DNA of 64,000 nucleotides from an uncultured Candidatus Saccharibacteria bacterium (GCA_964413715.1 CAYPSN010000002.1:850-64849), one strand, 5' to 3'. Counted from the first letter of the stretch, positions 2,530 to 62,244 are shown. The notes: generated from the sequence alone by a model not told the origin. A program made the numbers and translations.

Positions 2530-2799
2530 CGCCAAATCCTTTAGGCCAGGGTTTATACTGCGGGCTAAATTAAGTTTCTTACTGCGTCGCCAGCCTTTCA
2601 GTTGCTTCTCTCGGGCTATAGCTTCATATATATCCCGTGCTGCCTCAAAGTACATCAGCCGATCCACACTATATCGCGAGGTAAAACCATGTACTGTTTT
2701 TGATTTATGCTCATAAACCCGCCTCTGCAAGTCATTTGTTACGCCAATATAAATCGTGCCGGTCTTGCTGGCCAACATGTAAACATATGCACCGTTCAT
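2503..2799 (-). CDS. GIY-YIG nuclease family protein (UPF0213-like)
   Basis: MNGAYVYMLASKTGTIYIGVTNDLQRRVYEHK...YFE motifs. Start moved to the ATG at 2799, because the upstream extension in the ORF track is translation of the inverted repeat. Confidence 0.75.
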   Translation of the reverse strand: MNGAYVYMLASKTGTIYIGVTNDLQRRVYEHKSKTVHGFTSRYSVDRLMYFEAARDIYEAIAREKQLKGWRRSKKLNLARSINPGLKDLAADSSTSSE

Positions 2800-2841
2800 G
2801 CCTATAAAAATATATAGCCTTATAAAACTAGGCAAGCATAT

Positions 2842-2869
2842 GCAGATTCCTCGACAAGCTCGGAATGAC
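2842..2869. repeat. right arm of perfect 28-bp inverted repeat flanking the GIY-YIG gene
   Basis: GCAGATTCCTCGACAAGCTCGGAATGAC = reverse complement of 2502-2529. Confidence 0.9.
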
Positions 2870-3097
2870 ACGGCTAAGCTTTGAAGGGCGAAAAGGTTTT
2901 CCGACCACGGGTTCGCAAGCTAGGATTCATCTCATGCTTCGACTTATTAGCATTCAACTGCGGGATCGCTATCGCTAAGTCCTCGCCGAAGCTGAAGTTC
3001 TCAGATTCGCTGATCCTGTTGCTCCAAGGTCGGGGTAAGCTCCAGAAAACAGAAAAGACCCCGAGTTGGGGTCTTTTCTAAGTAGTAGAGAGCAGGT

Positions 3098-3769
3098 TTA
3101 CTCTTTAGCTTCACCTTCAGTGGCTGCTTCACCGCCTTCGCTGGCCTCACCCTCTTCGGCAGGTACAGCATCACCCACTTCGCTATCAAGCTCTTCAAGC
3201 TCTTCTTCGCTACGTGGCGGTTCTACCTTGGCAACAAGCTCTTCGGCATCAGTAAGAACCTCTACGCCTTCAGGAACTGTAAGATCAGCTACTGTAATGG
3301 TCTTTTCGAAGTCATCTAGCACTGCGATGTCGACTTCGATGTTCGACGGAAGCTTACCAGGCAAACATTCAATTTCCAGTTCACCTAGAGGTGTTACCAG
3401 ACTACCACCATCTTGGAATACAGCTGTTGATTCGCCAACAGTAACCAATGGCACTGAAGTGCGTACTACTTCGTCCATCTTTACGGTATATAGGTCGGCA
3501 TGCAATGGGAATGGTGCGTGCACACCGTGCTGAACGTCCTGAATAAGGGCATTTTTCTTGCCATCGCCTTCGATTTCAATCTCTAAAATGGTGCTGTGAC
3601 CAACGTGGGCGTAGAGTTTTGCAAACTCTGCCGCATCAACGCTTAAATTAACTGCTTCGCTACCCTGGCCGTACATTACGACTGGCATTCTCCCAGCTGT
3701 ACGCAAAGAAGCGAGTTTTTTACCTGTAATATCACGTTTTTGTGCTTTTAGCACGACTACATCTGTCAT
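3098..3769 (-). CDS. rplY: 50S ribosomal protein L25 / general stress protein Ctc, with acidic C-terminal tail
   Basis: MTDVVVLKAQKRDITGKKLASLRTAGRMPVVMYGQG... L25/Ctc fold signature; E/A/G-rich tail. Confidence 0.85.
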   Translation of the reverse strand: MTDVVVLKAQKRDITGKKLASLRTAGRMPVVMYGQGSEAVNLSVDAAEFAKLYAHVGHSTILEIEIEGDGKKNALIQDVQHGVHAPFPLHADLYTVKMDEVVRTSVPLVTVGESTAVFQDGGSLVTPLGELEIECLPGKLPSNIEVDIAVLDDFEKTITVADLTVPEGVEVLTDAEELVAKVEPPRSEEELEELDSEVGDAVPAEEGEASEGGEAATEGEAKE

Positions 3770-3785
3770 GTTGTTCTCTCTATAG

Positions 3786-4181
3786 TTACTTACGTTTACG
3801 TTGAGTAGGGATTAGACCGGCAAAATTACCGGAGTAGCCACTTATCTGCAAGTGAAAATCTGCAATCTCAGCCGAACTTATAGGCTCCATGGCCGAAAAG
3901 CGTGCTTTTTCGCCTGACTTGAGGTCTGTACGAGCTCTTTTAGCACGAGGGGCTACCTGGCCGGCTGGCTTAAGGCCATTACCTGCCTGGTTGTTCTCGG
4001 TTAAGAAAACTGTGGCCAAAACAGGCAGCGAGCAACGCTGACAGTTCAGCTGCATGAAGCAGTGACTGTCTACTTTGCCCAAGAATTTGATGTCGTTGAG
4101 TCGATAACCACCGTCACAGGAAGGACACTTGTAAAAAACCTGGAGGTTTTTAATCAGCTCTTGCAGATTTTTGCTTGTCAA
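3786..4181 (-). CDS. hypothetical C4 zinc-ribbon protein
   Basis: CPSC...17 aa...CQRC pattern. TTG start at 4181 preceded by AGAGGGAG; function unknown. Confidence 0.35.
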   Translation of the reverse strand: MTSKNLQELIKNLQVFYKCPSCDGGYRLNDIKFLGKVDSHCFMQLNCQRCSLPVLATVFLTENNQAGNGLKPAGQVAPRAKRARTDLKSGEKARFSAMEPISSAEIADFHLQISGYSGNFAGLIPTQRKRK

Positions 4182-7680: not shown

Positions 7681-7908
7681 CTACCGAGAAAGACGCTTTT
7701 TCAGTTTTGACTCAAGGGTTTCCCACTGCGCCTGTTCCGCCTGCGGGGCATTTGGCAGTTTTAGCAAAAACGTAGCACCAAACTTCTTTACCGCTTCACT
7801 CCGCGTATTTACTACGTTTTCGGCATGTAGGTAAGGCACTTGGGCCTGAGGCTTTACTTTACGGACTTTAATCTTCCGTTCTTTTGTAGGTTCATAATTA
7901 TAAAACAT
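7681..7908 (-). CDS. small basic hypothetical protein (75 aa)
   Basis: ORF with downstream terminator; no recognisable family. Confidence 0.4.
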   Translation of the reverse strand: MFYNYEPTKERKIKVRKVKPQAQVPYLHAENVVNTRSEAVKKFGATFLLKLPNAPQAEQAQWETLESKLKKRLSR

Positions 7909-8095
7909 ATCAAATTCCTTTGTTCTACTTTTGTGTTCGTTTTTGTTTAGCCGAATAGGCTTTTTATTTTATGTATTCATTTTCCCTCCACGACTGTTCA
8001 ATAACAGTCTCACAACACTAACAAACGAATATTATACGCTGATTGTCAATACTTATCAAGTATATTTCTTATGTTTTATGACTTTATGATTCATC

Positions 8096-8124
8096 TTGCC
8101 CATATCCCCTATTTTTGCTACTAT
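8096..8124 (+). promoter_or_regulatory. candidate sigma70 promoter of tRNA-Asp
   Basis: TTGCCC-17 nt-TACTAT, about 30 nt upstream of the tRNA 5' end. Confidence 0.35.
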
Positions 8125-8155
8125 ATCTAGGTTACAGTCAGCCTGAAACAAATGC

Positions 8156-8232
8156 GGGCCCGTGGTGTAGAGGCCTAACATGCCTCCCTGTCACGGAGGA
8201 GATCGCCGGTTCGAATCCGGTCGGGCCCGCCA
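8156..8232 (+). tRNA. tRNA-Asp (anticodon GTC)
   Basis: GGGCCCGTGGTGTAGAGGCCTAACATGCCTCCCTGTCACGGAGGAGATCGCCGGTTCGAATCCGGTCGGGCCCGCCA. Confidence 0.9.
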
Positions 8233-8369
8233 GATTACTTATACCCATGACTCCCGTTAGGAGTCATTTTTTATTGACATTTTAGTTTTTTTATGCCAAT
8301 ATATATACTTATAGGTCATTGAATTCAATTCAACCCCGCACCCCAACAACGCCCCCTTGGAGGCACCAA

Positions 8370-9383
8370 ATGGACTTGACCGTAAAGATCCTGGACAACC
8401 AGGCCAACATCCATCGTGGGGACGTTCTCGTCGCTTCGATCGGCCTTGACCCCTGGGAACAGGTGGACAAAGTCATCCTCATGCCCGACATCACGCAGGA
8501 CGAGACGGAACACGTCATTCGTCTCGCGGGTTCCCACATCCGTCACTTCGTTCGTCACCGCGACACCCCCGTGTTCGGCGAGCTGATGCGAGCGAAGCAC
8601 TACGACAACACCCTGACGTGCGCCATGTCGCACGAGATGCTGGAGACCCAGCAGATCGCCGACGACGTGAAGGAGATGGAAGTCGACTTCATCAAAGAGA
8701 TGTGCAAGCAGCTCTACATCCCGATCATCGTCGCTGTGTTCAAGACTGTCGACGAAGCCATCCTTTCGATCCTCTCTGACCCCCGTCTCGACAGCAAGAT
8801 CAGGTACGAGACGACTGAGAAGGACTTCCTGGGTGAAATGGGGCTCACGGTCTACTCGGAGAAGGATTCGGGCTTCCGATTCTGGCACTCTGTCATGATC
8901 GGCGGCTTCGACCTCGATGTCGTCCCTCTCTACCACCCCGTTCGACAGGACGGCCGCTCATCAGTGGGCATGATCAACGGTGACACGGATGCATACATCC
9001 GTGGTCGATCAGTCCGTTTCATCCATGCCCCTCAGGAAGCTCTGGTCGCCAGCAGTGGCTGGGCCACCTGGAGCTACGTCAACCACCCTTACTACGCGAA
9101 AGGACCCACGTTCGGCATGAAGATCATCCCGTGGGAGCTGCTTTCGCAGGAAGGGGCTGACAGCCTGAAGGATGTCCTGCTCGGTGCCTTGGAGATCGAC
9201 GGCAAGTACGTCGAGGTCAGCGGTGGCTTCCGTGCCCCTGCGGGTACGCCTTCCATACCTCACGGAGGAAAGCGGCTCGGATCTGAGGAACGAGCATACT
9301 GGTCGATCCAGGTGCTCAAGCAAGAAGGTGAGCTCGAAGGATCTCACATCCCTAGCTGGGCCGCATCCGTGGCCCGCGTCTGA
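8370..9383 (+). CDS. hypothetical protein (337 aa), high-GC island gene
   Basis: ATG at 8370 preceded by GGAGG; the ORF-track TTG extension is unlikely. Visibly GC-rich codons; no recognisable motif. Confidence 0.5.
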   Translation: MDLTVKILDNQANIHRGDVLVASIGLDPWEQVDKVILMPDITQDETEHVIRLAGSHIRHFVRHRDTPVFGELMRAKHYDNTLTCAMSHEMLETQQIADDVKEMEVDFIKEMCKQLYIPIIVAVFKTVDEAILSILSDPRLDSKIRYETTEKDFLGEMGLTVYSEKDSGFRFWHSVMIGGFDLDVVPLYHPVRQDGRSSVGMINGDTDAYIRGRSVRFIHAPQEALVASSGWATWSYVNHPYYAKGPTFGMKIIPWELLSQEGADSLKDVLLGALEIDGKYVEVSGGFRAPAGTPSIPHGGKRLGSEERAYWSIQVLKQEGELEGSHIPSWAASVARV

Positions 9384-9391
9384 CCTACCCC

Positions 9392-9444
9392 GCCCCCACC
9401 TGATTCCTGAAAGGGATGATGGTGGGGGCACTTCTATTTGTGGG
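9392..9444 (+). terminator. intrinsic terminator of the 8370-9383 gene
   Basis: GCCCCCACC-20 nt loop-GGTGGGGGC followed by ACTTCTATTTGTG. Confidence 0.6.
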
Positions 9445-9491
9445 TATAACCAAGTTCTAACTTCGTAAGCTCTAGGGCTTACGTTTTAGCC

Positions 9492-9520
9492 TTGAAAAAA
9501 CTAAAGCTTTAATGCATAAT
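9492..9520 (+). promoter_or_regulatory. sigma70-like promoter for NYN/wHTH operon
   Basis: TTGAAA-17 nt-CATAAT in an AT-rich spacer. Confidence 0.5.
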
Positions 9521-9573
9521 ACTGCTGTTCGTATCCCGAGCAATTTGCTCCTTAACAGAAAGGTTCTCGCACC

Positions 9574-10158
9574 GTGCCAGAACCAAAAAATACAAAGCGT
9601 CGTTATAAGCGCAAAACACTCACGGTCTTCGTTATGGACGCCCCGAATGTCGATGCAAGCTTCGGCCTGCTACTAGAGAGGGCCCCGCTGCCATCCGAGC
9701 GAATGCGCATGGATGCTCTTATGCAGTGGCTAGAGGGCAAGCAGCAGGCAAACGGCAGCGAGCTGTACGCCAAGATCTTCGTAAATCGTCCTGCTGAGTC
9801 AGTTGCAAGCAACAGGCAATTCGGCTGGGTGGTTGCCATGCAGAAGCTTGGCTACCATGTGTATTCAAAGATTCGAACCACTGATGACAGCGACGTTGAC
9901 GAAGATATGGTCGCATATATCAACAAGCTCGTGAAGTGCCACGAAGTTGTAGAGATCGTGCTGGCATCCAACGACGGCCAAAGGTTTCATAACATCCTGG
10001 AGATCTTGGCCTGCAACGGAGTCAAGGTAACAATCTTGGGTTTCAACGAGTTCCCAAGCATTCTCACTAGAAACGAGCTCTTCGAATTCGTCCCGTACAG
10101 CAGCATTCCTGGCCTGATGCCAGCAACGGGTTGCCAAACGGAAAGCCAAGCAACATGA
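9574..10158 (+). CDS. NYN/LabA-like (PIN-fold) nuclease domain protein
   Basis: KTLTVFVMDAPNVDASFG... resembles the NYN/DUF88 N-terminal strand plus acidic cluster. GTG start with AAAGG upstream. Confidence 0.5.
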   Translation: MPEPKNTKRRYKRKTLTVFVMDAPNVDASFGLLLERAPLPSERMRMDALMQWLEGKQQANGSELYAKIFVNRPAESVASNRQFGWVVAMQKLGYHVYSKIRTTDDSDVDEDMVAYINKLVKCHEVVEIVLASNDGQRFHNILEILACNGVKVTILGFNEFPSILTRNELFEFVPYSSIPGLMPATGCQTESQAT

Positions 10159-10466
10159 AGAAAGTACGCATCAACGAAAGCCTGCAGTCACTTCGGACGT
10201 ACGCAACGATGGTTGGCACAGATGGCCCCATCACCGCACGAGAGATCATGGATAGAACAGGTATCGCAGATGGAACCCTGTATCCAATCCTCGAGAAACG
10301 TGTGGCGGCAGGGATCATCGTTGAGGTCGAAGGTGGACACCCTGCCAGGTTCGACCTCTCACCTGATGGGTACGAGGTTGCAAAAGCAATACTGCTTTCA
10401 CTCGAGCTATCCTCATCCGCCTGGCTGCGCTGCGACCGCAGGCACAGACCCCCCCTGCTTAGCTAG
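10155..10466 (+). CDS. winged-helix DNA-binding protein (PadR-like)
   Basis: GTLYPILEKRVAAGIIVEVEG resembles the PadR wing/recognition helix. ATGA start-stop overlap with the NYN gene. Confidence 0.4.
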   Translation: MKKVRINESLQSLRTYATMVGTDGPITAREIMDRTGIADGTLYPILEKRVAAGIIVEVEGGHPARFDLSPDGYEVAKAILLSLELSSSAWLRCDRRHRPPLLS

Positions 10467-10496
10467 TCAGTAGCCCTGCTGGGCTCCAACAAAGAT

Positions 10497-10524
10497 GGAG
10501 CTTGGCGGGGCTCCTTCTTTTTTG
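10497..10524 (+). terminator. intrinsic terminator
   Basis: GGAGCTTGGCGGGGCTCC followed by TTCTTTTTTG. Confidence 0.6.
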
Positions 10525-10540
10525 GCAGAATAATTACATA

Positions 10541-10569
10541 TTGCCTGAGCATTCTAATCGTGTTATGAT
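10541..10569 (+). promoter_or_regulatory. sigma70-like promoter
   Basis: TTGCCT-17 nt-TATGAT upstream of the 10622 ORF. Confidence 0.45.
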
Positions 10570-10621
10570 TTTCTCCTCGCTCCGAAACTACTAGAATCAG
10601 GGGAAACAATTGAGCGTAGCC

Positions 10622-10864
10622 ATGGAGTTCGCTGCCATCAGCAGGCCCACCCAGATGGGCATTGGCATCTGCGTCTTGGGGCTGGCATGGTGCATCACCA
10701 TGCAGTGGCTGTTGGGCAAGGGCCACATCCAGGTGGTCAACCAAGACGAACCGGCCGCAGAGCCTTCGCGAGAGCGGTGGTTCAACTGGGAGTGGTTGTC
10801 CGCCATCAAGGAGTTCGCCAACTCGCGCGCTCGTGCCCACGGCCAACCCCAGCCCAAGCCGTAG
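10622..10864 (+). CDS. small membrane protein (80 aa), hypothetical, high GC
   Basis: GGGGAAA RBS; one hydrophobic helix GIGICVLGLAWCITMQWLL; own promoter and terminator. Competing minus-strand ORF 10463-10930 judged spurious. Confidence 0.4.
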   Translation: MEFAAISRPTQMGIGICVLGLAWCITMQWLLGKGHIQVVNQDEPAAEPSRERWFNWEWLSAIKEFANSRARAHGQPQPKP

Positions 10865-10892
10865 TTCCTGCCTCGGCAGTGGCTTCAACCTA

Positions 10893-10935
10893 GAACCCCC
10901 TCGGCATCGCGCCAAGGGGGTTCTTCTCATTTCAC
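10893..10935 (+). terminator. intrinsic terminator
   Basis: GAACCCCCT-13 nt loop-AGGGGGTTC followed by TTCTCATTTCACTTTCC. Confidence 0.6.
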
Positions 10936-10959
10936 TTTCCTACTCTGGATTCGTACGAA

Positions 10960-12060
10960 CTAAGGCCTGAAGTACTCTTTAATCTTAGCTTTTGTTCGTT
11001 GTGCTTTGAGCCAAGTTTCCACGTCGGTGCCCTTTATAAGGATGTGTGAGGCCTTTACTTGGTCATCTTTCTTATCGGTCACCTTGATAATATGATAGCC
11101 GTACTGAGTCTTTACAATGCCGCTCACTGCACCTTTCTCGAGCGCAAAGGCAGCTTGTTCGAACTCTGGCACCATTTGGCCTTTGCCAAAGAAACCTAAA
11201 TCACCACCATTTGAAGCGCTGCCATCTTGAGAATACTTCTTGGCTAACTCTTCGAAGTTGCCGCCTTCACGAACTTGCTTAAGGATGTCTTCGGCTTGCT
11301 TTTCGGCGCCGCCATTGAGGTTAGGATCTGCAGCAATCTTCTCGCCCAGCTTCTTCTGAAGCAGGCTTAGGCGCACACGCTCGCGGAAATCATCTACAGT
11401 CCAGCCATATAACTTATCAAGCGTGGTTTTTACCTTATCAATGCCACCGGCATTTTTCACTAGCTCGTTGAATTCGGTGTCAACGTCCTTCTTGGTAACA
11501 ATAATTTTATACTTTTTAGCCGACTGTTCGACCAATAAATTGTCTTCTTGCTGCTTAATCAAGTCTTGCTTGAGCTGTGCTAGCTTCTTTTTGCCTTCAG
11601 CCGAGTTGAGGTCCTGACCCTGTGATTTGTAGAACTTCTCGACGCTAGCGAGCTCGAAGAGATAGTCTTTGTAGCTAGTAGTATTCCACACCACATTGCC
11701 GTTTACGCTCGACACTGGGTATGGCACGACGCTCGCAAAAATACGCACTGCACGATTGGTCTGCTTGTATTTATAAATCAATACACCGAACACTACGGTA
11801 AACAGGAGTAAAGCCCCAAGTACGCTCGCGATAACGACGCCAATGGTCTTTTTGCTTGGGCCCTTTTTCACACCAAGCTTGCTCAAGCGCTCCTGAAAAC
11901 TCTGCTGCTTAGCTTCAGTCTTCTTTTCTGCAGGCGCAGCTGGCTTAGGAGCAGCTGCTACAGCCTTAGTTACTGGCTTTTTCTTAGCAGGCTTCTTGCT
12001 CGCTGCGGTCGGCTTAGTAGCCGGTTTCTTGTTTGGTTTGATGTCTGGATCTTGTGCCAT
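10960..12060 (-). CDS. peptidyl-prolyl cis-trans isomerase, parvulin/PpiC type (PrsA/SurA-like), membrane-anchored with Lys/Ala/Pro-rich N-tail
   Basis: SNGGDLGFFGKGQMVPEFEQAAF...YGYHIIKV rotamase motifs; TM IGVVIASVLGALLLFTVVFGVLI. Start at 12060 (ATG) or 12081 (TTG) is uncertain. Confidence 0.8.
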   Translation of the reverse strand: MAQDPDIKPNKKPATKPTAASKKPAKKKPVTKAVAAAPKPAAPAEKKTEAKQQSFQERLSKLGVKKGPSKKTIGVVIASVLGALLLFTVVFGVLIYKYKQTNRAVRIFASVVPYPVSSVNGNVVWNTTSYKDYLFELASVEKFYKSQGQDLNSAEGKKKLAQLKQDLIKQQEDNLLVEQSAKKYKIIVTKKDVDTEFNELVKNAGGIDKVKTTLDKLYGWTVDDFRERVRLSLLQKKLGEKIAADPNLNGGAEKQAEDILKQVREGGNFEELAKKYSQDGSASNGGDLGFFGKGQMVPEFEQAAFALEKGAVSGIVKTQYGYHIIKVTDKKDDQVKASHILIKGTDVETWLKAQRTKAKIKEYFRP

Positions 12061-12111
12061 AAAACGTGTATTCACCCTCAATAAATTACTTAATACTTAG
12101 CACTAATAGTA

Positions 12112-12693
12112 TCACGAAGCGGCAGGTGGTGTCGAACTGTTGGAGGTGTACTTATGAACCGCATCGATAATCTGCTTGGCAAGGACTGCTGGCTTATGAA
12201 CGAACTTCAGCTCCATGTCGCCAGAACCAGATAGCGTCTGAACGAGCACGTTGCCGTAGCCAAACAGCGAGGCATTAAAGCCGTCGACGTGATAGTTAAC
12301 GCTCTGGATGTTGTGAAGCTCCATGTCGGACACTTTGCGGTTAAAAAAGCCTTTTTGGGTAATGATTTTTAAGCTCTTATTGGTTAATACATACACACTA
12401 TAGTACCAGCTCACCCAGTGCCAAAAGCCATAACAAAAAGCCAGGCCAAAGCCGAGCCACATCATCCCGGCGGTCTCCTCTACTAAATTCGTGGCGTAAT
12501 TGCTCGCCAAAGCCCATGGTAGCATTACAAGCACCAGCATCGTGCCGCCGAACAAAATTGGTCGCCGCAGGGCAATAATAAACTGGCGCACTACTACAAT
12601 AACTTCTTCGTCTTTTTCCCGACCCACTGCGGCGGCGCCACGTTTGTGGGCAAGTTCGCGCTTATTTGGATTCGCTCTTTCGCTCATGGCCAT
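12112..12693 (-). CDS. bacterial PH-domain membrane protein (YdbS/DUF304-like)
   Basis: ATG at 12693 (MAMSERANPNK); two TM helices followed by a bPH_2-like domain. The ORF-track N-terminal extension overlaps the neighbouring gene. Confidence 0.55.
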   Translation of the reverse strand: MAMSERANPNKRELAHKRGAAAVGREKDEEVIVVVRQFIIALRRPILFGGTMLVLVMLPWALASNYATNLVEETAGMMWLGFGLAFCYGFWHWVSWYYSVYVLTNKSLKIITQKGFFNRKVSDMELHNIQSVNYHVDGFNASLFGYGNVLVQTLSGSGDMELKFVHKPAVLAKQIIDAVHKYTSNSSTPPAAS

Positions 12694-12772
12694 ATTGTAA
12701 CAGCTTATGATTATTCGACCAAAATCAAACCAAAAGGAAAACCCGGTCTTCTCGTCTTTGAGAAAACCGGGT

Positions 12773-13381
12773 TTAGTCGCGGAGCTTGATGTGTACTGGC
12801 CGATCGCGGTAGTACGCGTCGATGTACCCCACAATGCCATCTGGCAACTGCGTGGACTCGTTCTCAAGCGGCATCTCTGCCTTGTACCTGATAGCGAGGT
12901 CCTTGCCAGACAGCCCCCACGGGAACTCCTCGCCCGAGCTATCGCAGGGCCGCCAGCCATGTGAGCGAATCCAGGCCAACAGGTTCTCCCTGGCGGGAGT
13001 CTTGGCAGTTGACCGAACCCACAGATGATGGTTCTTGCCCTTCAGGGTGACCCGAAAGAGGAAAAACTTCACTGGCTTGAGCTTGCGCTGTGCACTGCGA
13101 CTGGGGTGGTGAACAGGCGCTTCGGTCGCGTAAGGCGGCTCGAATTCCTCGGCGGCGAGGAGCTCCTCGGCCTCGGTAGCTCGATGGATTATGTGGTCGT
13201 CGGTTTCGTTCGCGGCGGCATTTGCCCTGCGCTCGTCGAACATGATGATCTTGCCATCGTGGCCGTCGAGAACCACAGGATCACCACGCGTGAAGTCAGG
13301 TTCGGCGATGTGCGCACCGCAACTTGGACAGGTACTCGCCTCGATCTCATCGATCGAGGCTTCACAGATTGGACACTGCAT
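12773..13381 (-). CDS. hypothetical protein with N-terminal CPxC..CPxC zinc ribbon, high GC
   Basis: ATG at 13381 (MQCPICEASIDEIEASTCPSCGAH) with AAAGGA/GAGGA upstream; visibly GC-rich. Confidence 0.45.
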   Translation of the reverse strand: MQCPICEASIDEIEASTCPSCGAHIAEPDFTRGDPVVLDGHDGKIIMFDERRANAAANETDDHIIHRATEAEELLAAEEFEPPYATEAPVHHPSRSAQRKLKPVKFFLFRVTLKGKNHHLWVRSTAKTPARENLLAWIRSHGWRPCDSSGEEFPWGLSGKDLAIRYKAEMPLENESTQLPDGIVGYIDAYYRDRPVHIKLRD

Positions 13382-13495
13382 ATCCTCGATCCTTTCAATC
13401 GATTGTGCGGACGCCCTAAAAATACAACACTTATGGTTTTTTGTCAATCCCTGGTAACAACTTTTAGTGTATAATTATGGACGCGTGCGAATTAC

Positions 13496-13571
13496 GCCCT
13501 GGTAGCTCAGTGGATAGAGCGTCTCCGTCCTAAGGAGAGCGTCGGGGGTTCGATTCCCTCCCAGGGTACCA
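13496..13571 (+). tRNA. tRNA-Arg (anticodon CCT)
   Basis: GCCCTGGTAGCTCAGTGGATAGAGCGTCTCCGTCCTAAGGAGAGCGTCGGGGGTTCGATTCCCTCCCAGGGTACCA. Confidence 0.85.
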
Positions 13572-13576
13572 TTCTA

Positions 13577-13605
13577 TTGACTTTTTTAATTACTTATGCT
13601 ATTAT
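13577..13605 (+). promoter_or_regulatory. near-consensus sigma70 promoter
   Basis: TTGACT-17 nt-TATTAT, followed by a 5'-UTR hairpin GGTACCAG..CTGGTACC and RBS AAAGGAGG. Confidence 0.55.
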
Positions 13606-13672
13606 AGGCAAGTTCTAACGTTCAGGTACCAGTCACACAAAGCTGGTACCGCTCCTACCCAAAGGAGGCGCC

Positions 13673-14002
13673 GTGAGGCGTATCTTGATTGCAATGCTGA
13701 TCGTACTCTTCGGAGTCTGCATCAGCTCGGTCGCCCCTGCGGCTACCCAGGGCGGCACGCCACCAACGACGGTACCGCCCATCACGCCCACGACAGCGTG
13801 GCAGACAGTTCCGCCGACTGTGGATCCGCCCACCATCACCCCGTCGACTGTTCGGCCGTCAGCCAGCAACAGACCATCAACGGTCGAGGTCAAAGGGTTG
13901 CACGAAGTAATCGTGCTGATGCGATGGGTGGTGGTGGCCGCCTTTCTCGCATGTGCGATCCTCATATGGATCCTCATGCGGTTGTACCGGCCAAGCCGGT
14001 GA
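13673..14002 (+). CDS. small secreted/anchored Pro/Thr-rich protein (signal peptide, PT-rich linker, C-terminal TM)
   Basis: GTG start 6 nt after AAAGGAGG. MRRILIAMLIVLFGVCISSVAPAA signal peptide, TPPTTVPPITPTT repeats, C-terminal helix WVVVAAFLACAILIWILM. Confidence 0.5.
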   Translation: MRRILIAMLIVLFGVCISSVAPAATQGGTPPTTVPPITPTTAWQTVPPTVDPPTITPSTVRPSASNRPSTVEVKGLHEVIVLMRWVVVAAFLACAILIWILMRLYRPSR

Positions 14003-14008
14003 TATTCC

Positions 14009-14057
14009 GCCTGGCGGGGACGACAAGATCGTCCTTAGCCGGGCGATCTTTCGTTTA
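14009..14057 (+). repeat. copy 1 of ~47-bp direct repeat (hairpin + T-run, terminator-like)
   Basis: CGCCTGGCGGGGACGACAAGATCGTCCTTAGCCGGGCGATCTTTCGTTT; second copy at 14491-14542 with 4-5 mismatches. Confidence 0.7.
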
Positions 14058-14145
14058 GGAGAAATAATCAATGACGGCAAGTGGTATAATTGTATTCTCC
14101 CGCACAGTCCAAACCACTCCGCTTCGCAGATCAAAGTGAGGAATA

Positions 14146-14463
14146 ATGAAGAGACCACCCCGCCCCAGAAGCTTGGATGATGTTAACCAGCTCGTAGCGG
14201 AGCTACTTGAAACTGGTAGGCCAAAGGTAGCGAATCTCCCTATCCTCAACCGAGATGACGCAATCTTAAGAATGCTGGCGCTCATTGGGATTTGCTGGGG
14301 ACGAGACGAAGCCATGCTCGAATCGATCCTGGGTGAAGATGTCAAATTGGTTGATCCAGCAGAGAACGTAAAGTTTGCAGTTCGACAGCAAGACGGCTCT
14401 TACGTATTTGTAGACAAGTTTGACCAACTCAAGTCAACCGTCTACTACATGCTGAGCTCCTAG
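14146..14463 (+). CDS. hypothetical protein (105 aa) flanked by the direct repeats
   Basis: ORF with lower GC than its high-GC neighbours; no recognisable motif. Confidence 0.4.
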   Translation: MKRPPRPRSLDDVNQLVAELLETGRPKVANLPILNRDDAILRMLALIGICWGRDEAMLESILGEDVKLVDPAENVKFAVRQQDGSYVFVDKFDQLKSTVYYMLSS

Positions 14464-14490
14464 ATGAACTGCACAAAGCAGAGAGTTAAT

Positions 14491-14542
14491 CGCCCGACGG
14501 GGACGACAAGATCTTCCTTAGCCGGGCGGTCTTTCGTTTTTA
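14491..14542 (+). repeat. copy 2 of ~47-bp direct repeat
   Basis: CGCCCGACGGGGACGACAAGATCTTCCTTAGCCGGGCGGTCTTTCGTTTTT. Confidence 0.7.
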
Positions 14543-14643
14543 CACATAGAACTGCTTGCGCTTGAAATAACGAACAATTTGTTTAATAATCTGCTCCATG
14601 CATCGTGCAACAAGCGTACGAGCAAGAACCCCTAGGGGGAACA

Positions 14644-14871
14644 TTGAAAGTAATCGGAACAGCAGTCTCGCTCGGCCTCACGGCCGCAGTGGGTGCAGTC
14701 AGCCTGGCACTCGCCAGCGAACGCAAGCACGCCGACCAAGCTCGGCCGAAGGAGCTCCAATACCAGGGAGGGCCTCACTTCCTCGACCAGCTGGTCGGAG
14801 CCATGTACATCTTGGCGCCCATCGCCCTGGTGTGGCGTGCCACGCGCAAGCTGCGCGGAGGTGGCTGGTGA
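14644..14871 (+). CDS. small 2-TM membrane protein (75 aa), first gene of a high-GC overlapping four-gene operon
   Basis: TTG start after GGGGGA; two hydrophobic helices. Start is ambiguous; the ORF track GTG is at 14605. Confidence 0.4.
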   Translation: MKVIGTAVSLGLTAAVGAVSLALASERKHADQARPKELQYQGGPHFLDQLVGAMYILAPIALVWRATRKLRGGGW

Positions 14872-15017
14872 TCAAGCGATTCGTCGGCAAGACCCTGCTC
14901 TACACTGCAACGATCGGTGCTGGTGCTGCTATCGGCATCGGCTCGGTCAGGGTTGGTGAATGGGCGCTCCTCCACGGTTGGGATCGGCTGATGAACCCAA
15001 GTGCGAGGCGCCCATGA
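14868..15017 (+). CDS. hypothetical 49-aa protein, GTGA-overlap coupled
   Basis: GTG at 14868 overlaps the upstream TGA (GTGA). Same frame as ORF-track 14598-15017. Confidence 0.35.
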   Translation: MIKRFVGKTLLYTATIGAGAAIGIGSVRVGEWALLHGWDRLMNPSARRP

Positions 15018-15277
15018 GCCAGCCCTACAGAGGCAAAGACCCGAACTTCACCCAAGAGTGGTGGGATCTGGTTTGCTCGGCCCCTGAAAAGATCGAGCAT
15101 GCTCGCGCTAAGACCAAGGCAATTCGTGAAGGCAGAGCTCCAGTCGTACACTACGACTACGGCGATGTATTAACCAAGGCTGGCCTTGATGCTGCTGCCG
15201 AAGTCTTAGCTAGGGACAAGAAAACGCGTGTCAGTCAAGCTGACCGACTCCTGCCAGCGAGTCTCCGCGATGAATAA
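15014..15277 (+). CDS. hypothetical 87-aa protein, ATGA-overlap coupled
   Basis: ATG at 15014 overlaps the upstream TGA; sequence MSQPYRGKDPNFTQEWWDL... Confidence 0.4.
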   Translation: MSQPYRGKDPNFTQEWWDLVCSAPEKIEHARAKTKAIREGRAPVVHYDYGDVLTKAGLDAAAEVLARDKKTRVSQADRLLPASLRDE

Positions 15278-15362
15278 GCCAACCAGGACCCAGCGGCTGG
15301 CCTACCGAATAGGTCGATTCTTCGGCCTGGTCATCGGCGCGTTCCTGCGCGTCTTCGACTAA
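15270..15362 (+). CDS. 30-aa basic amphipathic peptide (not in ORF track)
   Basis: ATG at 15270 overlaps the upstream gene end (ATGAATAA); MNKPTRTQRLAYRIGRFFGLVIGAFLRVFD, then stop. Confidence 0.3.
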   Translation: MNKPTRTQRLAYRIGRFFGLVIGAFLRVFD

Positions 15363-15417
15363 AATAGCGCGGGGTAAGCGGCGATTGCAGCCGGCCCCGC
15401 AGACTATGCCCATAACC

Positions 15418-15446
15418 AAAAGCCCCGAGATATCTCGGGGCTTTCA
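15418..15446. terminator. bidirectional intrinsic terminator
   Basis: AAA-AGCCCCGAGA-TA-TCTCGGGGCT-TTCA; 10-bp perfect stem between the convergent operon and the NUDIX gene. Confidence 0.7.
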
Positions 15447-15461
15447 TCGTATTGATTGCTA

Positions 15462-15884
15462 TTACTTCAGCCAATCCCTGTATTGCTCTAACTGAAATCG
15501 TGTCATTGGTGTCAAATCTTCCTGGGCTAATGCATCTTCGAGAGGATGCCATTTGAACTCTAACACCCTGTCATACTCTGTTCTGTGAGGCTCTCCACTC
15601 TTCCAGTCACACTGAAACGTTATTCCCACCCAGTGCTCTTTGCCATCTGGACTTTGGCGCACGTTGCTACCAATAATTTTGCCAGGGCTAACTTCGAGGC
15701 CAGCTTCTTCGCGCACTTCCCGCTTCACTGCCTCTTCCAAGCTCTCGCCAAACTCTACGAGGCCACCTAGTAGCTCCCACTTGTAATGTTGGTCTCGCGC
15801 CTTGGGCCCACGTAAGCCGAGTAGAATGTTACCGTCCTTGATAATAAGAGCGCCAACGCCGACTCGAAACTTCTGTTCTTCCAT
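15462..15884 (-). CDS. NUDIX hydrolase
   Basis: Nudix box GGLVEFGESLEEAVKREVREEAGL. Confidence 0.85.
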   Translation of the reverse strand: MEEQKFRVGVGALIIKDGNILLGLRGPKARDQHYKWELLGGLVEFGESLEEAVKREVREEAGLEVSPGKIIGSNVRQSPDGKEHWVGITFQCDWKSGEPHRTEYDRVLEFKWHPLEDALAQEDLTPMTRFQLEQYRDWLK

Positions 15885-15887
15885 AAC

Positions 15888-16379
15888 CTAGTGTCCAAAG
15901 GTATGAATCTGGTGCACGGTCTTATAGTCCTGCACATCTTCGTCGGCAAACCATAGCTTAATTTCCGCTTCGGCCTCTTCTGCATTACCCGAAGCATGCA
16001 CTAAGTTGCGTAGTGACTTGTTGTTACTATCGCCCCAGCTGTAGTTCTCATGAGCAAAGTCGCCACGAATGGTGCCTGGTGCAGCCCCAAGAGGTTCGGT
16101 CGTTCCAACCATCTTGCGCACAGCAGCAATCACCCCAACGCCTTCTAGTACGAATGCAAGCACAGGGCCTTCCGACAAGTAGGCAGTTGCCTGGTCAAAA
16201 ACCTTCTGGCTAACACGCTCGGCCAAGCCGTCGTAATGAGCATCGGCGTGCTCCTTGCTTACGTTCATAAGCTTCATGCCTACAACTTTCATACCTGCGT
16301 CTTCAAAGCGTTGAATAATCCGACCCATCAGCCCTCGTGCAACTCCATCGGGCTTAATTATTACGAGTGTTCTTTCCAT
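15888..16379 (-). CDS. ndk: nucleoside diphosphate kinase
   Basis: MERTLVIIKPDGVARGLMGRIIQRFE...NLVHASGNAEEAEAEIKLWF. Confidence 0.9.
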   Translation of the reverse strand: MERTLVIIKPDGVARGLMGRIIQRFEDAGMKVVGMKLMNVSKEHADAHYDGLAERVSQKVFDQATAYLSEGPVLAFVLEGVGVIAAVRKMVGTTEPLGAAPGTIRGDFAHENYSWGDSNNKSLRNLVHASGNAEEAEAEIKLWFADEDVQDYKTVHQIHTFGH

Positions 16380-18358: not shown

Positions 18359-19270
18359 ATGTTTAATGACTACATGGCTGATTTTTTGGAATACATGGAA
18401 GTAGAACGCGGGCGCAGCGTTAAGACGATAGAAAACTACGCCCACTACTTGAATCGCTTCGATGAATTCGCTGGCGAAATTAAGGTTGAAAAGATCACGC
18501 TCGATACTATTAGCAAGTGGCGCCAATGGTTGAACCGCTACGTTACCGACGACGGTCGCAGTATTAGCCGCACCACCCAAAACTACCATCTAATAGCTAT
18601 GCGAAGTTTTCTGCGCTACCTGGTGAAGCGGGACGTTAAAAGTCTGAGCCCCGACAAGATAGAGCTCGCTCAAGCCAAACGACCACAGGTGAGCTTTCTG
18701 GATAAAGATGAGGTACATAGGCTCATGGAGGCAGTAAAAACCGACACCATGACTGGCCTGCGTGATAAAGCAATCCTAGCCATGCTATTCTCCACTGGCC
18801 TGCGCGTGTCAGAACTAGTAGCACTCAATCGCGACAGCGTTAACTTGGATCGCGGCGAGTTTAGCGTACGCGGTAAAGGGCAAAAGGATCGGCCAGTCTA
18901 CTTGAGCGAATCGGCCGCGTTAATCCTTAGTTACTATCTGGAAGCCCGCCACGACGAGTACGATCCGCTCTTCATCCACTTTAGCGGCACCAAAAGCAAC
19001 CTCGAAGGTGGCGAATACACACGCCTAACTACCCGTAGCATTCAGCGCATTGTAGAAAAATATACGAAGCTCGCTGGCATTACCAAACACGTTACGCCCC
19101 ACACCCTGCGCCACAGCTTTGCCACTGACCTGCTTATGAATGGCGCCGACATCCGCAGCGTGCAAGGGCTATTGGGCCACTCCAACATATCCACAACGCA
19201 AGTGTATACCCACATTACCGACCCGCACCTAAAGGACGTGCACAAGAAGTTTCATTCGGACAACAGTTAA
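18359..19270 (+). CDS. tyrosine site-specific recombinase XerC/XerD family
   Basis: Catalytic tail LRHSFATDLLMNGADIRSVQGLLGHSNISTTQVYTHI; 303 aa. Confidence 0.85.
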   Translation: MFNDYMADFLEYMEVERGRSVKTIENYAHYLNRFDEFAGEIKVEKITLDTISKWRQWLNRYVTDDGRSISRTTQNYHLIAMRSFLRYLVKRDVKSLSPDKIELAQAKRPQVSFLDKDEVHRLMEAVKTDTMTGLRDKAILAMLFSTGLRVSELVALNRDSVNLDRGEFSVRGKGQKDRPVYLSESAALILSYYLEARHDEYDPLFIHFSGTKSNLEGGEYTRLTTRSIQRIVEKYTKLAGITKHVTPHTLRHSFATDLLMNGADIRSVQGLLGHSNISTTQVYTHITDPHLKDVHKKFHSDNS

Positions 19271-58249: not shown

Positions 58250-59179
58250 CTACCCTTCCTTCTTGCAGAGTGCAATAATCAGATTCTGCGTGGCGCTACT
58301 GCTATCGAGCATGCCAGTCTTGATACTGTAATCAGCTTCTACGATCAGTGCATATGCCCGACGCAAATCATCCAGCGTCATTTTCATAGCTACTTGCATA
58401 GCTTTTTCGGCAGGGTATGGCTTAATGCCAAATTGCTTAGCCCAACCACTTCCCTGGCCAGCGTTATCGTGTGCCAACACAATATTGCGATACTGCCCCA
58501 CGAGCATTGCGATGATCTGCTGGTCAGCCACCCCCTGCCGTACCAAATTCTTGTATGTCGACATAGCTCGATCCAGGTTTTGCGCCACCACCGCGTCAGT
58601 AAGTTCAAAAATCGTCTGCTCTACATTGGCCACCACTAATTCTTCAATTGCTGTCTGTGTAACGTTTTTATCATAAGCCACCAGCTTTTGAATCTCTTGT
58701 GCCAGCTGCCACTGGTCATTACCAATACGCCTGAGTAAGCTCATGGCAAGTGCGGGCGAAATTGTTCCGCCGTGGCGCTGGGCCTGCTGCACTATCCAAT
58801 CACGCAGTGCCACGTCACTAAGCTGCTTAAATTCCTTCGCCTGCTTCAAGGCAGAGAGTTTCTTAAAGTAACTACTACGCCGATCAACCTTCGGCTCCTC
58901 TATAAGTAGCACCGTACTATCGGCAACAGAAGCCAAAACTTCATCAATCTTTTCTACAGCCTTTTTATTGTCACCCAACCCGCGTAGAATGATGAACCGA
59001 CTACTTGCCAACAGCGGCATTACTGCTAGGGCATCGAGCAAGTTGCCCACCGAATGTTCGGCCATATCGATTACTTCTAAGTTTAAATCCCCATCAGATT
59101 TTTTGGCATAATGGCCCTTTAGCCGCTCCACTTCTTGCCGCATCGCGTAGCTGTTTTCGCCATAAAAGAATAGAATCAT
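58250..59179 (-). CDS. holA: DNA polymerase III subunit delta
   Basis: MILFFYGENSYAMRQEVERL N-terminus and overall architecture; 309 aa. Confidence 0.75.
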   Translation of the reverse strand: MILFFYGENSYAMRQEVERLKGHYAKKSDGDLNLEVIDMAEHSVGNLLDALAVMPLLASSRFIILRGLGDNKKAVEKIDEVLASVADSTVLLIEEPKVDRRSSYFKKLSALKQAKEFKQLSDVALRDWIVQQAQRHGGTISPALAMSLLRRIGNDQWQLAQEIQKLVAYDKNVTQTAIEELVVANVEQTIFELTDAVVAQNLDRAMSTYKNLVRQGVADQQIIAMLVGQYRNIVLAHDNAGQGSGWAKQFGIKPYPAEKAMQVAMKMTLDDLRRAYALIVEADYSIKTGMLDSSSATQNLIIALCKKEG

Positions 59180-59194
59180 ATACCTATTGTACCT

Positions 59195-59259
59195 GAAAAT
59201 AAAAAAGGACCCCGCTGGCCAGCTCGCCTCCCGAAGGATTTGAGCCAGCCAGCCGAGTC
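59195..59259 (-). repeat. 65-bp terminator-like repeat, copy 1
   Basis: GAAAATAAAAAAGGACCCCGCTGGCCAGCTCGCCTCCCGAAGGATTTGAGCCAGCCAGCCGAGTC; identical copy at 59871-59935. Confidence 0.8.
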
Positions 59260-59260
59260 A

Positions 59261-59803
59261 TCACCAGCCGTCGGATCGTTCTCTGTGCTCTTCCCACGTC
59301 GACCTGAGGACACCTAGCAGTTCCTCTACGTCGCTTCTGCACTTTGCATCATCCGTCACTACTGCCCAGCCAAGTTCAGCGCATGAACCATCCTCTATGT
59401 TATCCATCGAATAACAAAGCATGAGGGCATCAACGACAACAGTCTTGTCGTCACCTTGTTGGAACACAACGATATAGAGAGTTCCGCCAGCGAACGTTGG
59501 GCCGCATGCCAGCAAGAGGTCGTTCCGCAGCTCAGCGTCGATAAGCTCATCTTCTACACCAACGAACTCGATGACGCTCCTGAACTGATCATCCCGTGCC
59601 AATCTGACTTGGTGGCAATAGCACGGCCCTCGAGGCCGTACATAGGCTTGTATGAAGTCAGCTAGCAGACCAAGCGCTGCCTGCACCAAATCGCACTTGC
59701 GGCAGGTACCAGTTCCGAGCTCGATGCTCTTGTCCCTCCACTGTTCCACATGCACCCTGCGAGAATGAGGGTGCCACGAAACAGCCAAAACTGACCTGTT
59801 CAA
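59261..59803 (-). CDS. hypothetical Cys-rich protein (~180 aa), high GC
   Basis: TTG at 59803 after AAAGGAAA; GTG starts at 59755 and 59749 are also possible. CRKCDL..CYCH cysteine cluster. Confidence 0.35.
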   Translation of the reverse strand: MNRSVLAVSWHPHSRRVHVEQWRDKSIELGTGTCRKCDLVQAALGLLADFIQAYVRPRGPCYCHQVRLARDDQFRSVIEFVGVEDELIDAELRNDLLLACGPTFAGGTLYIVVFQQGDDKTVVVDALMLCYSMDNIEDGSCAELGWAVVTDDAKCRSDVEELLGVLRSTWEEHRERSDGW

Positions 59804-59870
59804 TTTATTTCCTTTCAAAGGCCTATTGGGCAATGTAAGTATGCTGCTGGGGACCAATAAAATCAAGCGT

Positions 59871-59935
59871 GAAAATAAAAAAGGACCCCGCTGGCCAGCT
59901 CGCCTCCCGAAGGATTTGAGCCAGCCAGCCGAGTC
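59871..59935 (-). repeat. 65-bp terminator-like repeat, copy 2
   Basis: Identical to copy 1; 12 nt downstream (minus strand) of the 65-aa ORF stop. Confidence 0.8.
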
Positions 59936-59947
59936 GGCATGTTCCCC

Positions 59948-60145
59948 TCAGTCGGGGAACGGATTGGTGGAGCCGGCCATCGCCAGGTCCATGGAGCCAC
60001 CACCGCGCGGGCGGCGCTGGGGGGTGAGGACGTCCCAGCCCTCACTCAGCTCCGGATGGTCACGGCAGATCTCGCCGTGGGTCTTGCCCTGGGCTCGCAT
60101 CTCCTCGATGCGAGCCGCCTGCTGTCGTGGGCTCAGATCGCCCAT
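59948..60145 (-). CDS. small hypothetical protein (65 aa), overlaps the 3' end of the 696-aa ORF by 85 nt
   Basis: ATG preceded by GGAGAGGAA. Whether this ORF or the C-terminal tail of the large ORF is real cannot be decided from sequence. Confidence 0.3.
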   Translation of the reverse strand: MGDLSPRQQAARIEEMRAQGKTHGEICRDHPELSEGWDVLTPQRRPRGGGSMDLAMAGSTNPFPD

Positions 60146-62150: not shown

Positions 62151-62194
62151 TTGGCCCTCCTGGGCTATGTCAAAGCTGCCCTAAGGCAGTTGCC

Positions 62195-62207
62195 ACCGAA
62201 TTTCGGT
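62195..62207. promoter_or_regulatory. 6-1-6 palindrome ACCGAAtTTCGGT between promoter and RBS of the 696-aa gene (candidate operator)
   Basis: Perfect inverted half-sites; shares the CCGAA core with the microrepeat array upstream of the RHH gene. Confidence 0.4.
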
Positions 62208-62215
62208 ACCGCCGA

Positions 62216-62244
62216 TTTATACCATTTTTCACCTTAAAATACAA
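62216..62244 (-). promoter_or_regulatory. sigma70-like promoter of the 696-aa gene
   Basis: Minus strand TTGTAT-17 nt-TATAAA. Confidence 0.45.

Follow-up and report, generated by a model that had tools for sequence, protein, structure and literature searches.

We analysed a 64,000-nt stretch from an uncultured Candidatus Saccharibacteria bacterium (GCA_964413715.1 CAYPSN010000002.1:850-64849), hereafter the window, and in it the interval between a tRNA-Asp(GTC) gene and a gene for a parvulin-like peptidyl-prolyl isomerase (PPIase). This interval is probably a hypervariable cassette slot of a Saccharibacteria clade, holding three units of different ages rather than one island. Several observations carry this reading. 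The segment next to the tRNA is present in some strains and absent from others, with the breakpoint at the tRNA's terminal CCA, and a serine recombinase allele occupies the same site in further strains. Copies of the tRNA's 3′ end, here called pseudo-tRNA ends, lie in the slot of relatives. The same cassette, built around an open reading frame (ORF) that we call ORF1, is found at three tRNAs, and the low synonymous divergence (dS) of ORF1 marks a recent transfer. The neighbouring gene, for an NYN-domain protein, is mosaic. We infer that a serine recombinase or a relative of it moves the cassettes, as well as the order of events in the window strain.

Three transcription units follow tRNA-Asp: ORF1; the NYN gene with an overlapping gene for a winged helix-turn-helix (wHTH) protein; and a small membrane protein gene. 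The initial annotation had counted four promoter-ORF-terminator modules here. The separate promoters and hairpins stand, but the units number three. The features of the interval are the following (contigs and loci of relatives are cited by our handles, L001 and so on).

8156-8232, plus strand: tRNA-Asp(GTC) (ARAGORN; Rfam 62 bits), whose 3′ CCA is the left boundary of all variation
8233-9504, plus strand: strain-specific insertion (blastn against L341/L343), standing in place of their 63-nt terminator and spacer
8247-8267, plus strand: hairpin and T-run after the tRNA, the tRNA terminator (−11 kcal/mol, z −4.6)
8274-8302, plus strand: promoter of the ORF1 cassette (TTGACA and CAATAT separated by a 17-nt spacer, TATGC upstream), the conserved cassette's left end
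8370-9383, plus strand: ORF1, 337 aa, with a GGAGG ribosome-binding site at 8359-8363
9392-9429, plus strand: GC-rich hairpin after ORF1 (−31.8 kcal/mol), the right end of the conserved cassette
9464-9483, plus strand: second small hairpin, weak (−10.8 kcal/mol, z −2.0), preceded by TATAACCAAGTTCTAAC
9492-9520, plus strand: promoter of the NYN-wHTH operon (TTGAAA, 17-nt spacer, CATAAT), where homology with relatives restarts
9574-10158, plus strand: NYN-domain protein, 194 aa, GTG start (PF01936, 28.5 bits)
10155-10466, plus strand: winged-helix (TrmB-like) protein, 103 aa, its ATG overlapping the NYN stop (ATGA)
10472-10512, plus strand: terminator of the NYN-wHTH operon, a long GC hairpin and T-run (−32.3 kcal/mol)
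10541-10569, plus strand: promoter-like site of the small membrane protein gene
10610-10864, plus strand: small protein with one transmembrane segment, 84 aa from TTG 10610 or 80 aa from ATG 10622
10892-10924, plus strand: GC hairpin between the convergent small-protein and parvulin genes (−33.2 kcal/mol, z −5.4)
10960-12081, minus strand: parvulin/SurA-like PPIase, backbone, the right border of the slot (Pfam Rotamase_3, 3.9e-30)

The three hairpins that end transcription units have energies of −31.8 to −33.2 kcal/mol. For these (9392-9429, 10472-10512 and 10892-10924) and for the tRNA terminator at 8247-8267, none of 200 shuffled sequences folded equally well.

Alleles at the tRNA-Asp end

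Strain-level contigs were fetched by an exact match to the 75-aa protein encoded upstream of tRNA-Asp, and their backbones are 93-100% identical to the window. In six of them, with flanks 93-97% identical, the match to the window breaks off at 8232, the tRNA's final base, or at most 4 nt beyond, as the initial annotation had supposed in naming the tRNA 3′ end as the insertion point. The tRNA itself does not differ within the clade. Past it, three alleles are found. The first is the ORF1 cassette (the window, L336, L337). The second is an empty site (L341, L343, L345), in which the tRNA CCA is followed by AGTAAAAGCC and a 63-nt terminator and spacer lead to the NYN promoter. The third is a gene for a large serine recombinase, convergent to the tRNA end (L340, L342, L344). 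A further contig, L339, opens like those with the recombinase allele and ends 9 nt past the tRNA. Across strains, at least four distinct terminators come after tRNA-Asp, and the window's hairpin at 8247-8267 differs from those of the other strains.

Comparison with the empty-site strains delimits the newcomer. A blastn alignment of the window with L341 and L343 halts at 8232 and restarts at 9505. Relative to L341, the tract 8233-9504 has no counterpart, 9505 to ~9950 is 60-80% identical, 9960-10215 is 90-99% identical, and 10470-10960 is 78-97% identical per 80-nt window. Between them, 10215-10450 is deleted in L341 (~230 bp), which cuts the wHTH gene to 28 codons and leaves the NYN gene intact. 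Thus, only ~1.27 kb (8233-9504) is strain-specific, and since the 5′ two-thirds of the NYN gene is a divergent allele, a recombination breakpoint lies near 9950, inside that gene. The window's post-tRNA spacer, the serine recombinase gene's 3′ end and the cassette promoter spacers share a similarity, ATTACTTAT, that was set aside as too short and too AT-rich to interpret.

The remaining genes have a longer history at this position. Syntenic loci in Saccharibacteria metagenome-assembled genomes were retrieved with the parvulin protein, whose gene is syntenic in all relatives compared. In L001 and L002 (parvulin 85% and 84% aa identity), tRNA-Asp and parvulin flank the same slot, and at the same position stand an NYN gene (68% aa) and a wHTH gene (64-66% aa, tblastn). 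Both loci lack ORF1 and have two other genes there instead; in L002 the NYN promoter comes directly after the tRNA terminator. The counterpart of the small protein in both is an 84-aa membrane protein, matched by position and by a C-terminal RARAHGQ motif. This motif is common to L001, L002 and L341; L082 has RTTKH. Because the homologues in L001, L002 and L082 share a TTG-(M)SV start, TTG followed by "SV", the window gene probably starts at TTG 10610. The protein announced as an 80-aa membrane protein is therefore a one-transmembrane protein, as described, probably of 84 aa.

By these comparisons, the NYN-wHTH pair appears to be a conserved, old resident of the slot in which the 5′ part of NYN is a foreign allele. 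The small membrane protein gene, 91-97% identical in nucleotides to that of L341, likewise appears to be an old resident, backbone-like between strains despite having the highest GC content at third codon positions (GC3). Other combinations of ~10 different gene modules fill the same slot in L082, L350, L351/L352, L346 and L347. This variability among relatives marks the slot as a long-lived variable locus in which three of the window's four genes are old residents. The initial annotation had named the same genes, in the same place in relatives, as evidence against an island; three of the four are so placed, and their GC3 is raised in the relatives too.

The NYN match (28.5 bits against a cut-off of 24.2) aligns residues 22-163 with profile positions 7-133 of 145, and the 194-aa protein is a putative member of the NYN (PIN-like) nuclease family. 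The best Pfam match of the 103-aa protein is the TrmB wHTH family, at 24.2 bits just below the cut-off of 25.6. PadR, the label first given to it, found no match at E ≤ 0.1, so that of the earlier description the NYN domain, the ATGA coupling and the winged helix hold, and the evidence for the partner reaches "winged helix" only. A type II toxin-antitoxin pair was also considered; the L341 strain, with its 28-codon wHTH remnant beside an intact NYN ORF that still matches PF01936, argues indirectly against it.

Composition changes as first described, in that GC rises after tRNA-Asp and the backbone resumes with the lower-GC parvulin gene at 10960. The rise is real but uneven. Windowed GC is 0.40-0.46 over 7751-8500, 0.53-0.60 over 8251-9500 and 0.51-0.55 over 9500-11000, against 0.47-0.48 for the parvulin gene and a window mean of 0.487, and the first ~135 nt past the tRNA are AT-rich. 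With 45 backbone genes as reference (GC3 0.488 ± 0.053), GC3 is 0.763 for ORF1 (z = 5.1), 0.621 for NYN (z = 2.5), 0.596 for wHTH (z = 2.0) and 0.864 for the small membrane protein (z = 7.0). These z-scores were used instead of a codon-choice log-likelihood against the backbone, which does not discriminate because backbone GC3 is near 0.5. Comparable GC-rich patches occur at 12.5-15.3 kb and 59-63 kb of the window; the latter (59000-63000, GC 0.54-0.55) includes a 696-aa ORF at 60060-62150 on the minus strand.

The ORF1 cassette and its transfer

ORF1 had been described as a 337-aa protein with no recognisable motif, and our searches likewise assigned it to no family. It matched none in Pfam, PHROGs or PADLOC and nothing in the Protein Data Bank (PDB) by sequence profile. 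Its AlphaFold2 model, with a mean predicted local distance difference test score (pLDDT) of 86.9, gave nothing usable by Foldseek against the PDB and BFVD. A role as a recombinase was rejected after these family, profile and fold searches, and PADLOC matched no known defence system among the slot genes. Homologues are scarce among close relatives, with 12 clusters, and a profile search extends the family to 169 clusters at 50% identity. Several motifs are invariant or nearly so (PxYHP, NGxTD, HPxxAxG, GGF(R)AP and GSE), and one may speculate that they belong to an enzyme or a specific binding protein. A dN/dS (ratio of nonsynonymous to synonymous substitution rates) of ~0.17-0.2 indicates purifying selection and hence a functional protein.

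Close homologues of ORF1 occur in four contexts. The first is after tRNA-Asp, in the window and L082. The second is directly after a pseudo tRNA-Asp end, ACGGTCTGGCCCGCCA (L083). The third lies 3 nt past the CCA of tRNA-Arg(CCT) (L080/L081), and the fourth 4 nt past the CCA of tRNA-Arg(TCG) (L085-L090). Across all four, DNA conservation runs from the −35 box (ATTGAC) to just past the hairpin, which ends ..GATGGTGGGGGC.

The cassette is more alike between hosts than the hosts' own genes are. ORF1 is 88% identical in amino acids in L082, against 77% for parvulin; in L080 it is 73% identical, against 55% for parvulin and 47% for NDK. The dS of ORF1 is 0.36 (L082) and 1.04 (L080), whereas parvulin is saturated, with a proportion of synonymous differences (pS) of 0.76 and 0.81. 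Thus, with dS far below that of the backbone, ORF1 moves horizontally. In L080 its GC3 is 0.68, against 0.37-0.47 for the host's own genes, and so stays high in a lower-GC host. Distant members of the family (31-36% aa) sit in stable, non-tRNA contexts, which makes ORF1 cargo and not an obvious mobility gene. Taken together, these comparisons suggest that the ~1.2 kb promoter-ORF1-hairpin cassette, within the 1.27 kb segment, is a recent horizontal arrival.

Pseudo-tRNA ends, a shared promoter and a second slot

Relatives preserve copies of the tRNA end at the junctions between units. In L001, ~160 nt separate the real tRNA-Asp from a 19/20-nt copy of its 3′ end, which scores 31 where the null reaches 23 at most. 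The terminator behind this copy is the one found behind the real tRNA in empty-site strains, which identifies the copy as the displaced original tRNA end; a GC-rich 188-aa cassette is next. L351/L352 have two pseudo-Asp ends, each 4 nt (AGTA) before a cassette promoter and a different cassette. In the tRNA-Asp slot of L350 the single pseudo-end, which has 3 mismatches, precedes a terminator and not a promoter.

The window has no such copy, as the initial annotation had remarked in finding neither an integrase nor a direct repeat of the tRNA end. Allowing up to 3 mismatches, a search of the 64 kb with the tRNA-Asp 3′-terminal 17-mer recovers the tRNA and nothing else. In 8233-16000, shorter cores match no better than chance, and the best local alignment to the tRNA-Asp end scores 15, under the null median of 16. 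A supposed eroded pseudo-end after ORF1 in the window and L082 was not significant. In metagenome and viral collections, a 15/16-nt tRNA-end core returned, among the matches listed, unrelated GC-rich sequences and none of this clade.

A second mark of these junctions is a promoter. The motif TTGACWTTTT-N8-TATGCYAWTRT has two sites in the 64 kb (8274 and 13577), both in tRNA slots, where none is expected. This cassette promoter is conserved in all ORF1 cassettes, and in L001 the motif occurs once per slot, the two copies being 97% identical over 31 nt.

The second of these sites belongs to a second cassette slot of the window (13496-15450), which opens with tRNA-Arg(CCT) at 13496-13571. Four nucleotides past its CCA lies the same type of promoter (13577-13605), then a GC3-rich, Pro/Thr-rich ORF of 109 aa for a membrane or secreted protein (13673-14002), then further small ORFs. 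A 49-nt terminator-like hairpin occurs twice in this slot (14008-14056 and 14491-14539, 92% identical). The sequence past tRNA-Arg(CCT) differs from the CCA onward in every relative examined. In L001 the homologous Arg cassette is 2.7 kb from the tRNA, with two units in between that have pseudo-Arg ends, TTCCAAATCTCAATYACGTGRTGTACCA, as their borders. The distal end abuts a promoter (0 nt), and after the proximal one comes a duplicate of the tRNA's terminator. In L350 a pseudo-Arg end, and in L351 the real tRNA-Arg, is followed by a promoter after 3 nt and 5 nt, respectively.

Judged by their arrangement, these pseudo-ends and promoter junctions look like what repeated site-specific integration leaves behind when each new arrival displaces the earlier ones inward. 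The window itself possibly retains one trace: TATAACCAAGTTCTAAC, before the hairpin at 9464-9483, resembles by eye the −10/leader of the tRNA-Arg cassette promoter (13600-13620) and may be a relic of an older junction.

Further observations concern the surroundings of these slots. A ~120-nt segment from the real tRNA-Asp terminator to the first pseudo-end (L001 14842-14966, minus strand; L350 4232-4354; L352 4190-4312) is ~90% conserved across three species amid variable surroundings, and is not present in the window. RNAalifold gives it a cloverleaf-like fold whose outer stem uses the pseudo-end, with no covariation among the three sequences; candidate identities are a recombinase arm site and a tRNA-like RNA. 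In L001, a 22-nt copy (91%) of the 5′ part of tRNA-Arg(CCT) lies ~100 nt upstream of that tRNA gene (8341-8362 and 8448-8469). Just upstream of tRNA-Arg in the window, 12773-13447 on the minus strand encodes a 224-aa zinc-ribbon protein (GC3 0.69, z 3.8). Of the syntenic relatives L001-L006, only L006 has a counterpart (35% aa), with a weak N-terminal match in L003; L350 and L351 have at its position a ~200-aa gene with a faint zinc-ribbon match. From this distribution, it is probably another flexible gene.

How the cassettes may move

The recombinase allele offers a candidate for the moving enzyme. The strain-level gene, seen as a C-terminal fragment in L340, L342 and L344, matches the Recombinase domain PF07508 (29.4 bits) and the zinc-ribbon domain PF13408 (23.8 bits), and full-length Saccharibacteria homologues also carry the resolvase domain PF00239. 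The strains bearing it are 93-94% identical to the window in the flanks. In the distant L346, a homologue (62% aa) runs into the tRNA-Asp 3′ end and shares the post-CCA hairpin of the strain-level allele; the homologue of L347 and L348 (58%) is found within the parvulin-to-tRNA-Asp slot, ~1.1 kb from the tRNA end. The initial annotation had entertained a non-integrase mechanism, but none is needed when a recombinase gene abuts the same tRNA end in strains of 93-94% identity and duplicated Asp ends are found in sisters.

In the window, tblastn found no match to the serine recombinase in 64 kb (no general integrase search was made), and Pfam found no recombinase among the four slot products. At 18359-19270 lies a gene for an Xer-like tyrosine recombinase, which belongs to the backbone, as its synteny in L001, L005 and L006 indicates. 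We found nothing in the literature on such a locus type for Saccharibacteria with serine recombinases, tRNAs or islands. A separate observation is that the recombinase ORF reads ~40 nt into the opposite strand of tRNA-Asp before its stop, in two lineages (L342, ORF 2-937 plus, tRNA 896-972 minus; L346, ORF 2711-3964 plus, tRNA 3923-3999 minus). Its C-terminal residues are thus encoded by the tRNA-Asp complement. Elsewhere in the window, a small stand-alone ORF at 2503-2871 on the minus strand, between the NrdR and L25 genes, has a GIY-YIG domain; the Pfam label is that of the gene call on the identical contigs L336/L337.

The history that we favour would run as follows. Elements would recombine site-specifically with the tRNA 3′ end. 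Each newcomer would set its own terminator or promoter directly past the CCA, moving earlier cassettes farther from the tRNA. Between cassettes, a tRNA 3′-end copy would sometimes remain, and integrases and repeats would be lost later. The slot alleles would spread between strains by homologous recombination, anchored on one flank by the invariant tRNA and on the opposite flank by slot or backbone sequence that is conserved. In the window strain, a second crossover may have fallen near 9950 inside the NYN gene, and either the recombinase and any repeat may have been lost or the tract of ORF1 plus the NYN 5′ part may have come by homologous recombination.

Several points weigh against the slot reading. 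Since the window has neither a serine-recombinase homologue nor a tRNA-end repeat, the site-specific step is deduced from relatives only. No single element on any contig joins the recombinase to an ORF1-type cassette. The strain contigs that carry the recombinase break off before the element's far end and cargo, and the whole recombinase elements (L346, L347) carry other cargo. Because the three tRNAs differ in their 3′ ends, a recombinase of one specificity cannot account for all of the sites; either more than one specificity or a system acting in trans is implied by three different targets. After the ORF1 cassette, L080 has a candidate tRNA-Arg repeat that is a hint only (score 20, the 95th percentile of the null), and L085 and the window have no candidate. 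Finally, GC3 of the small protein is 0.86 in the window and 0.81 in L001 although the gene is long-resident, and GC3 alone does not date insertions.

One alternative dispenses with a site-specific step in the window lineage. The ORF1 cassette and the NYN 5′ part would have been imported together by DNA uptake and homologous recombination, with crossovers in the invariant tRNA-Asp and the conserved NYN 3′ part, so that the tRNA border is the point where homology starts. The divergent tract is indeed continuous from 8233 to ~9950, followed by a jump to 90-99% identity, and tRNA-Asp offers identical sequence throughout the clade. Type IV pilus and secretion-ATPase genes lie at ~22-33 kb (ORF list; Pfam labels from homologous genes), and natural transformation of Saccharibacteria, established experimentally, also counts in its favour. 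However, uptake explains the spread of the cassette and not its origin: it does not place the cassette 3-4 nt past two non-homologous tRNAs without flanking homology, and it leaves the pseudo-tRNA ends and the recombinase allele unexplained. As a complete account we judge it rather unlikely; it is compatible with the slot explanation and partly included in it.

A more ambitious form of the slot explanation is that Saccharibacteria possess a tRNA-anchored cassette-capture system. A recombinase acting in trans, with the serine recombinase as candidate, would insert promoter-led single-gene cassettes at several tRNA CCA ends. The promoters 0-5 nt past real or pseudo tRNA ends, the integron-like arrays without IntI or attC, and ORF1 as travelling cargo would all fit such a system, which we put forward as a doubtful proposal.

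Closely allied is a tRNA-anchored, integron-like system in which cassettes with a pseudo-end site and an outward promoter are excised as circles and reinserted at tRNA 3′ ends by a recombinase encoded elsewhere, either the strain-level serine recombinase or the Xer-like one at 18359-19270. Arrays of the order tRNA, cassette, pseudo-end, promoter, cassette, with 0-4 nt spacing, are found in the Asp slot of L351/L352 and the Arg slots of L001 and L350. One promoter type is common to unrelated cassettes and restricted to these slots, and the cassettes have no mobility gene of their own. As in integrons, arrays of single-gene units stand at one anchored site with short, repeated, recombination-site-like sequences between them and apparent entry beside the anchor. 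Integron cassettes, however, are mostly promoterless, end in attC and need IntI and attI, whereas each unit here carries a promoter and a terminator of its own and the repeated site mimics a tRNA 3′ end. Pfam found no integrase in the slot; no search aimed at attC was made, and the slot hairpins behave as terminators. Moreover, no circular junction, excision product or recombinase-cassette link was observed, the window cassette has no pseudo-end on either side, the promoter likeness could reflect a strong consensus promoter, and the decay of larger integrase-bearing elements explains the same arrays. We therefore hold this system to be improbable.

That 8233-10950 is one old tRNA-integrated island, whose four genes came together and whose integrase and attR have decayed, is very unlikely. 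Raised GC3 in all four genes, the position at a tRNA 3′ end and the lack of a serine-recombinase homologue or tRNA-end repeat in the window would suit it. Yet near-conspecific strains lack only 8233-9504, the NYN, wHTH and small-protein genes are in place in sister species without ORF1, identity to L341 changes three times across the interval, and ORF1 alone recurs at other tRNAs. Of the single old or decayed insertion first proposed, the ORF1 segment survives as a strain-specific insertion and the 2.7 kb whole does not. The comparison with classical tRNA islands divides along the same lines. Absence from close relatives with a breakpoint at the tRNA is found for 8233-9504 and not for 9505-10950. 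An integrase at the island and a far-border tRNA repeat are not seen in the window, although such repeats occur in L001, L083, L350 and L351/L352. Composition is deviant, with the old resident small protein gene the most deviant of all.

Least credible is a prophage remnant, with ORF1 a phage "moron" left after prophage deletion. Morons are independent units with their own promoter and terminator and deviant GC, present as extra DNA between sequences adjacent in a relative (PMC3594210), and the ORF1 unit has all these traits; it stands, however, in a bacterial chromosome beside a tRNA and not in a phage or prophage genome, the slot has no phage gene, and the neighbouring genes are cellular. 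A phage origin was rejected because ORF1 has no PHROG match, IMG/VR relative or BFVD fold match, and blastn found no match in 50,697 phage records.

The slot explanation has its nearest parallel in the tycheposons of Prochlorococcus, elements with tyrosine or large serine recombinases that integrate at tRNA genes of a streamlined genome (Hackl et al., bioRxiv 10.1101/2020.12.28.424599). Successive integrations push older ones inward, so that partial tRNAs, integrase fragments and cargo build persistent islands (bioRxiv 10.1101/2020.12.28.424599). Here, too, there is a recombinase allele at a tRNA end, pseudo-tRNA ends between units and integrase-less cargo beside tRNAs. By comparison, tycheposons are elements of 5-15 kb, whereas the units here are of 1-4 kb with single genes. 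Several of these begin with a shared outward promoter 0-5 nt past a real or pseudo tRNA end, and the host is an epibiotic bacterium of the Candidate Phyla Radiation (CPR). No replication module or hallmark genes are seen here; the likeness is one of island-building logic only, and we do not claim membership in the lineage.

The other comparisons are with integrative elements. Of large-serine-recombinase integrative elements, the recombinase at the edge is absent from the window and present at the identical site in L340, L342 and L344. Cis-mobilizable elements (CIMEs) are integrase-less elements at tRNA or other att sites that are mobilized by accretion with an incoming integrative element, as for ICESt1/ICESt3 of Streptococcus thermophilus. 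The units described here resemble them in having no integrase, in their att-like repeats and in their tandem arrangement at the 3′ end of a conserved gene, and they could likewise move by a recombinase acting in trans. They differ in that no conjugative element is seen, the units are much smaller and the window copy has no flanking repeats.

Finally, these findings bear on how very small genomes vary. Saccharibacteria and other CPR genomes are tiny, their mobile elements are little known, and gene turnover at the strain level is largely open. In the picture drawn from this locus, two tRNA 3′ ends (Asp-GTC and Arg-CCT) act as loading docks for kilobase-sized, self-expressed cassettes. These come from a flexible pool of GC-richer genes and are inserted there, displaced and traded, while a serine recombinase segregates in the population at the same site. 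The slot cargo (ORF1, the NYN-wHTH pair and small membrane or secreted proteins) provides candidates for strain-specific interaction functions. If the cassettes are mobilized in trans, they would represent a new minimal cassette system and a natural landing site for engineering these bacteria, which are difficult to manipulate. Overall, the locus is best classed as a variant of tRNA-targeted island building, and descriptions of such elements in this phylum are scarce.

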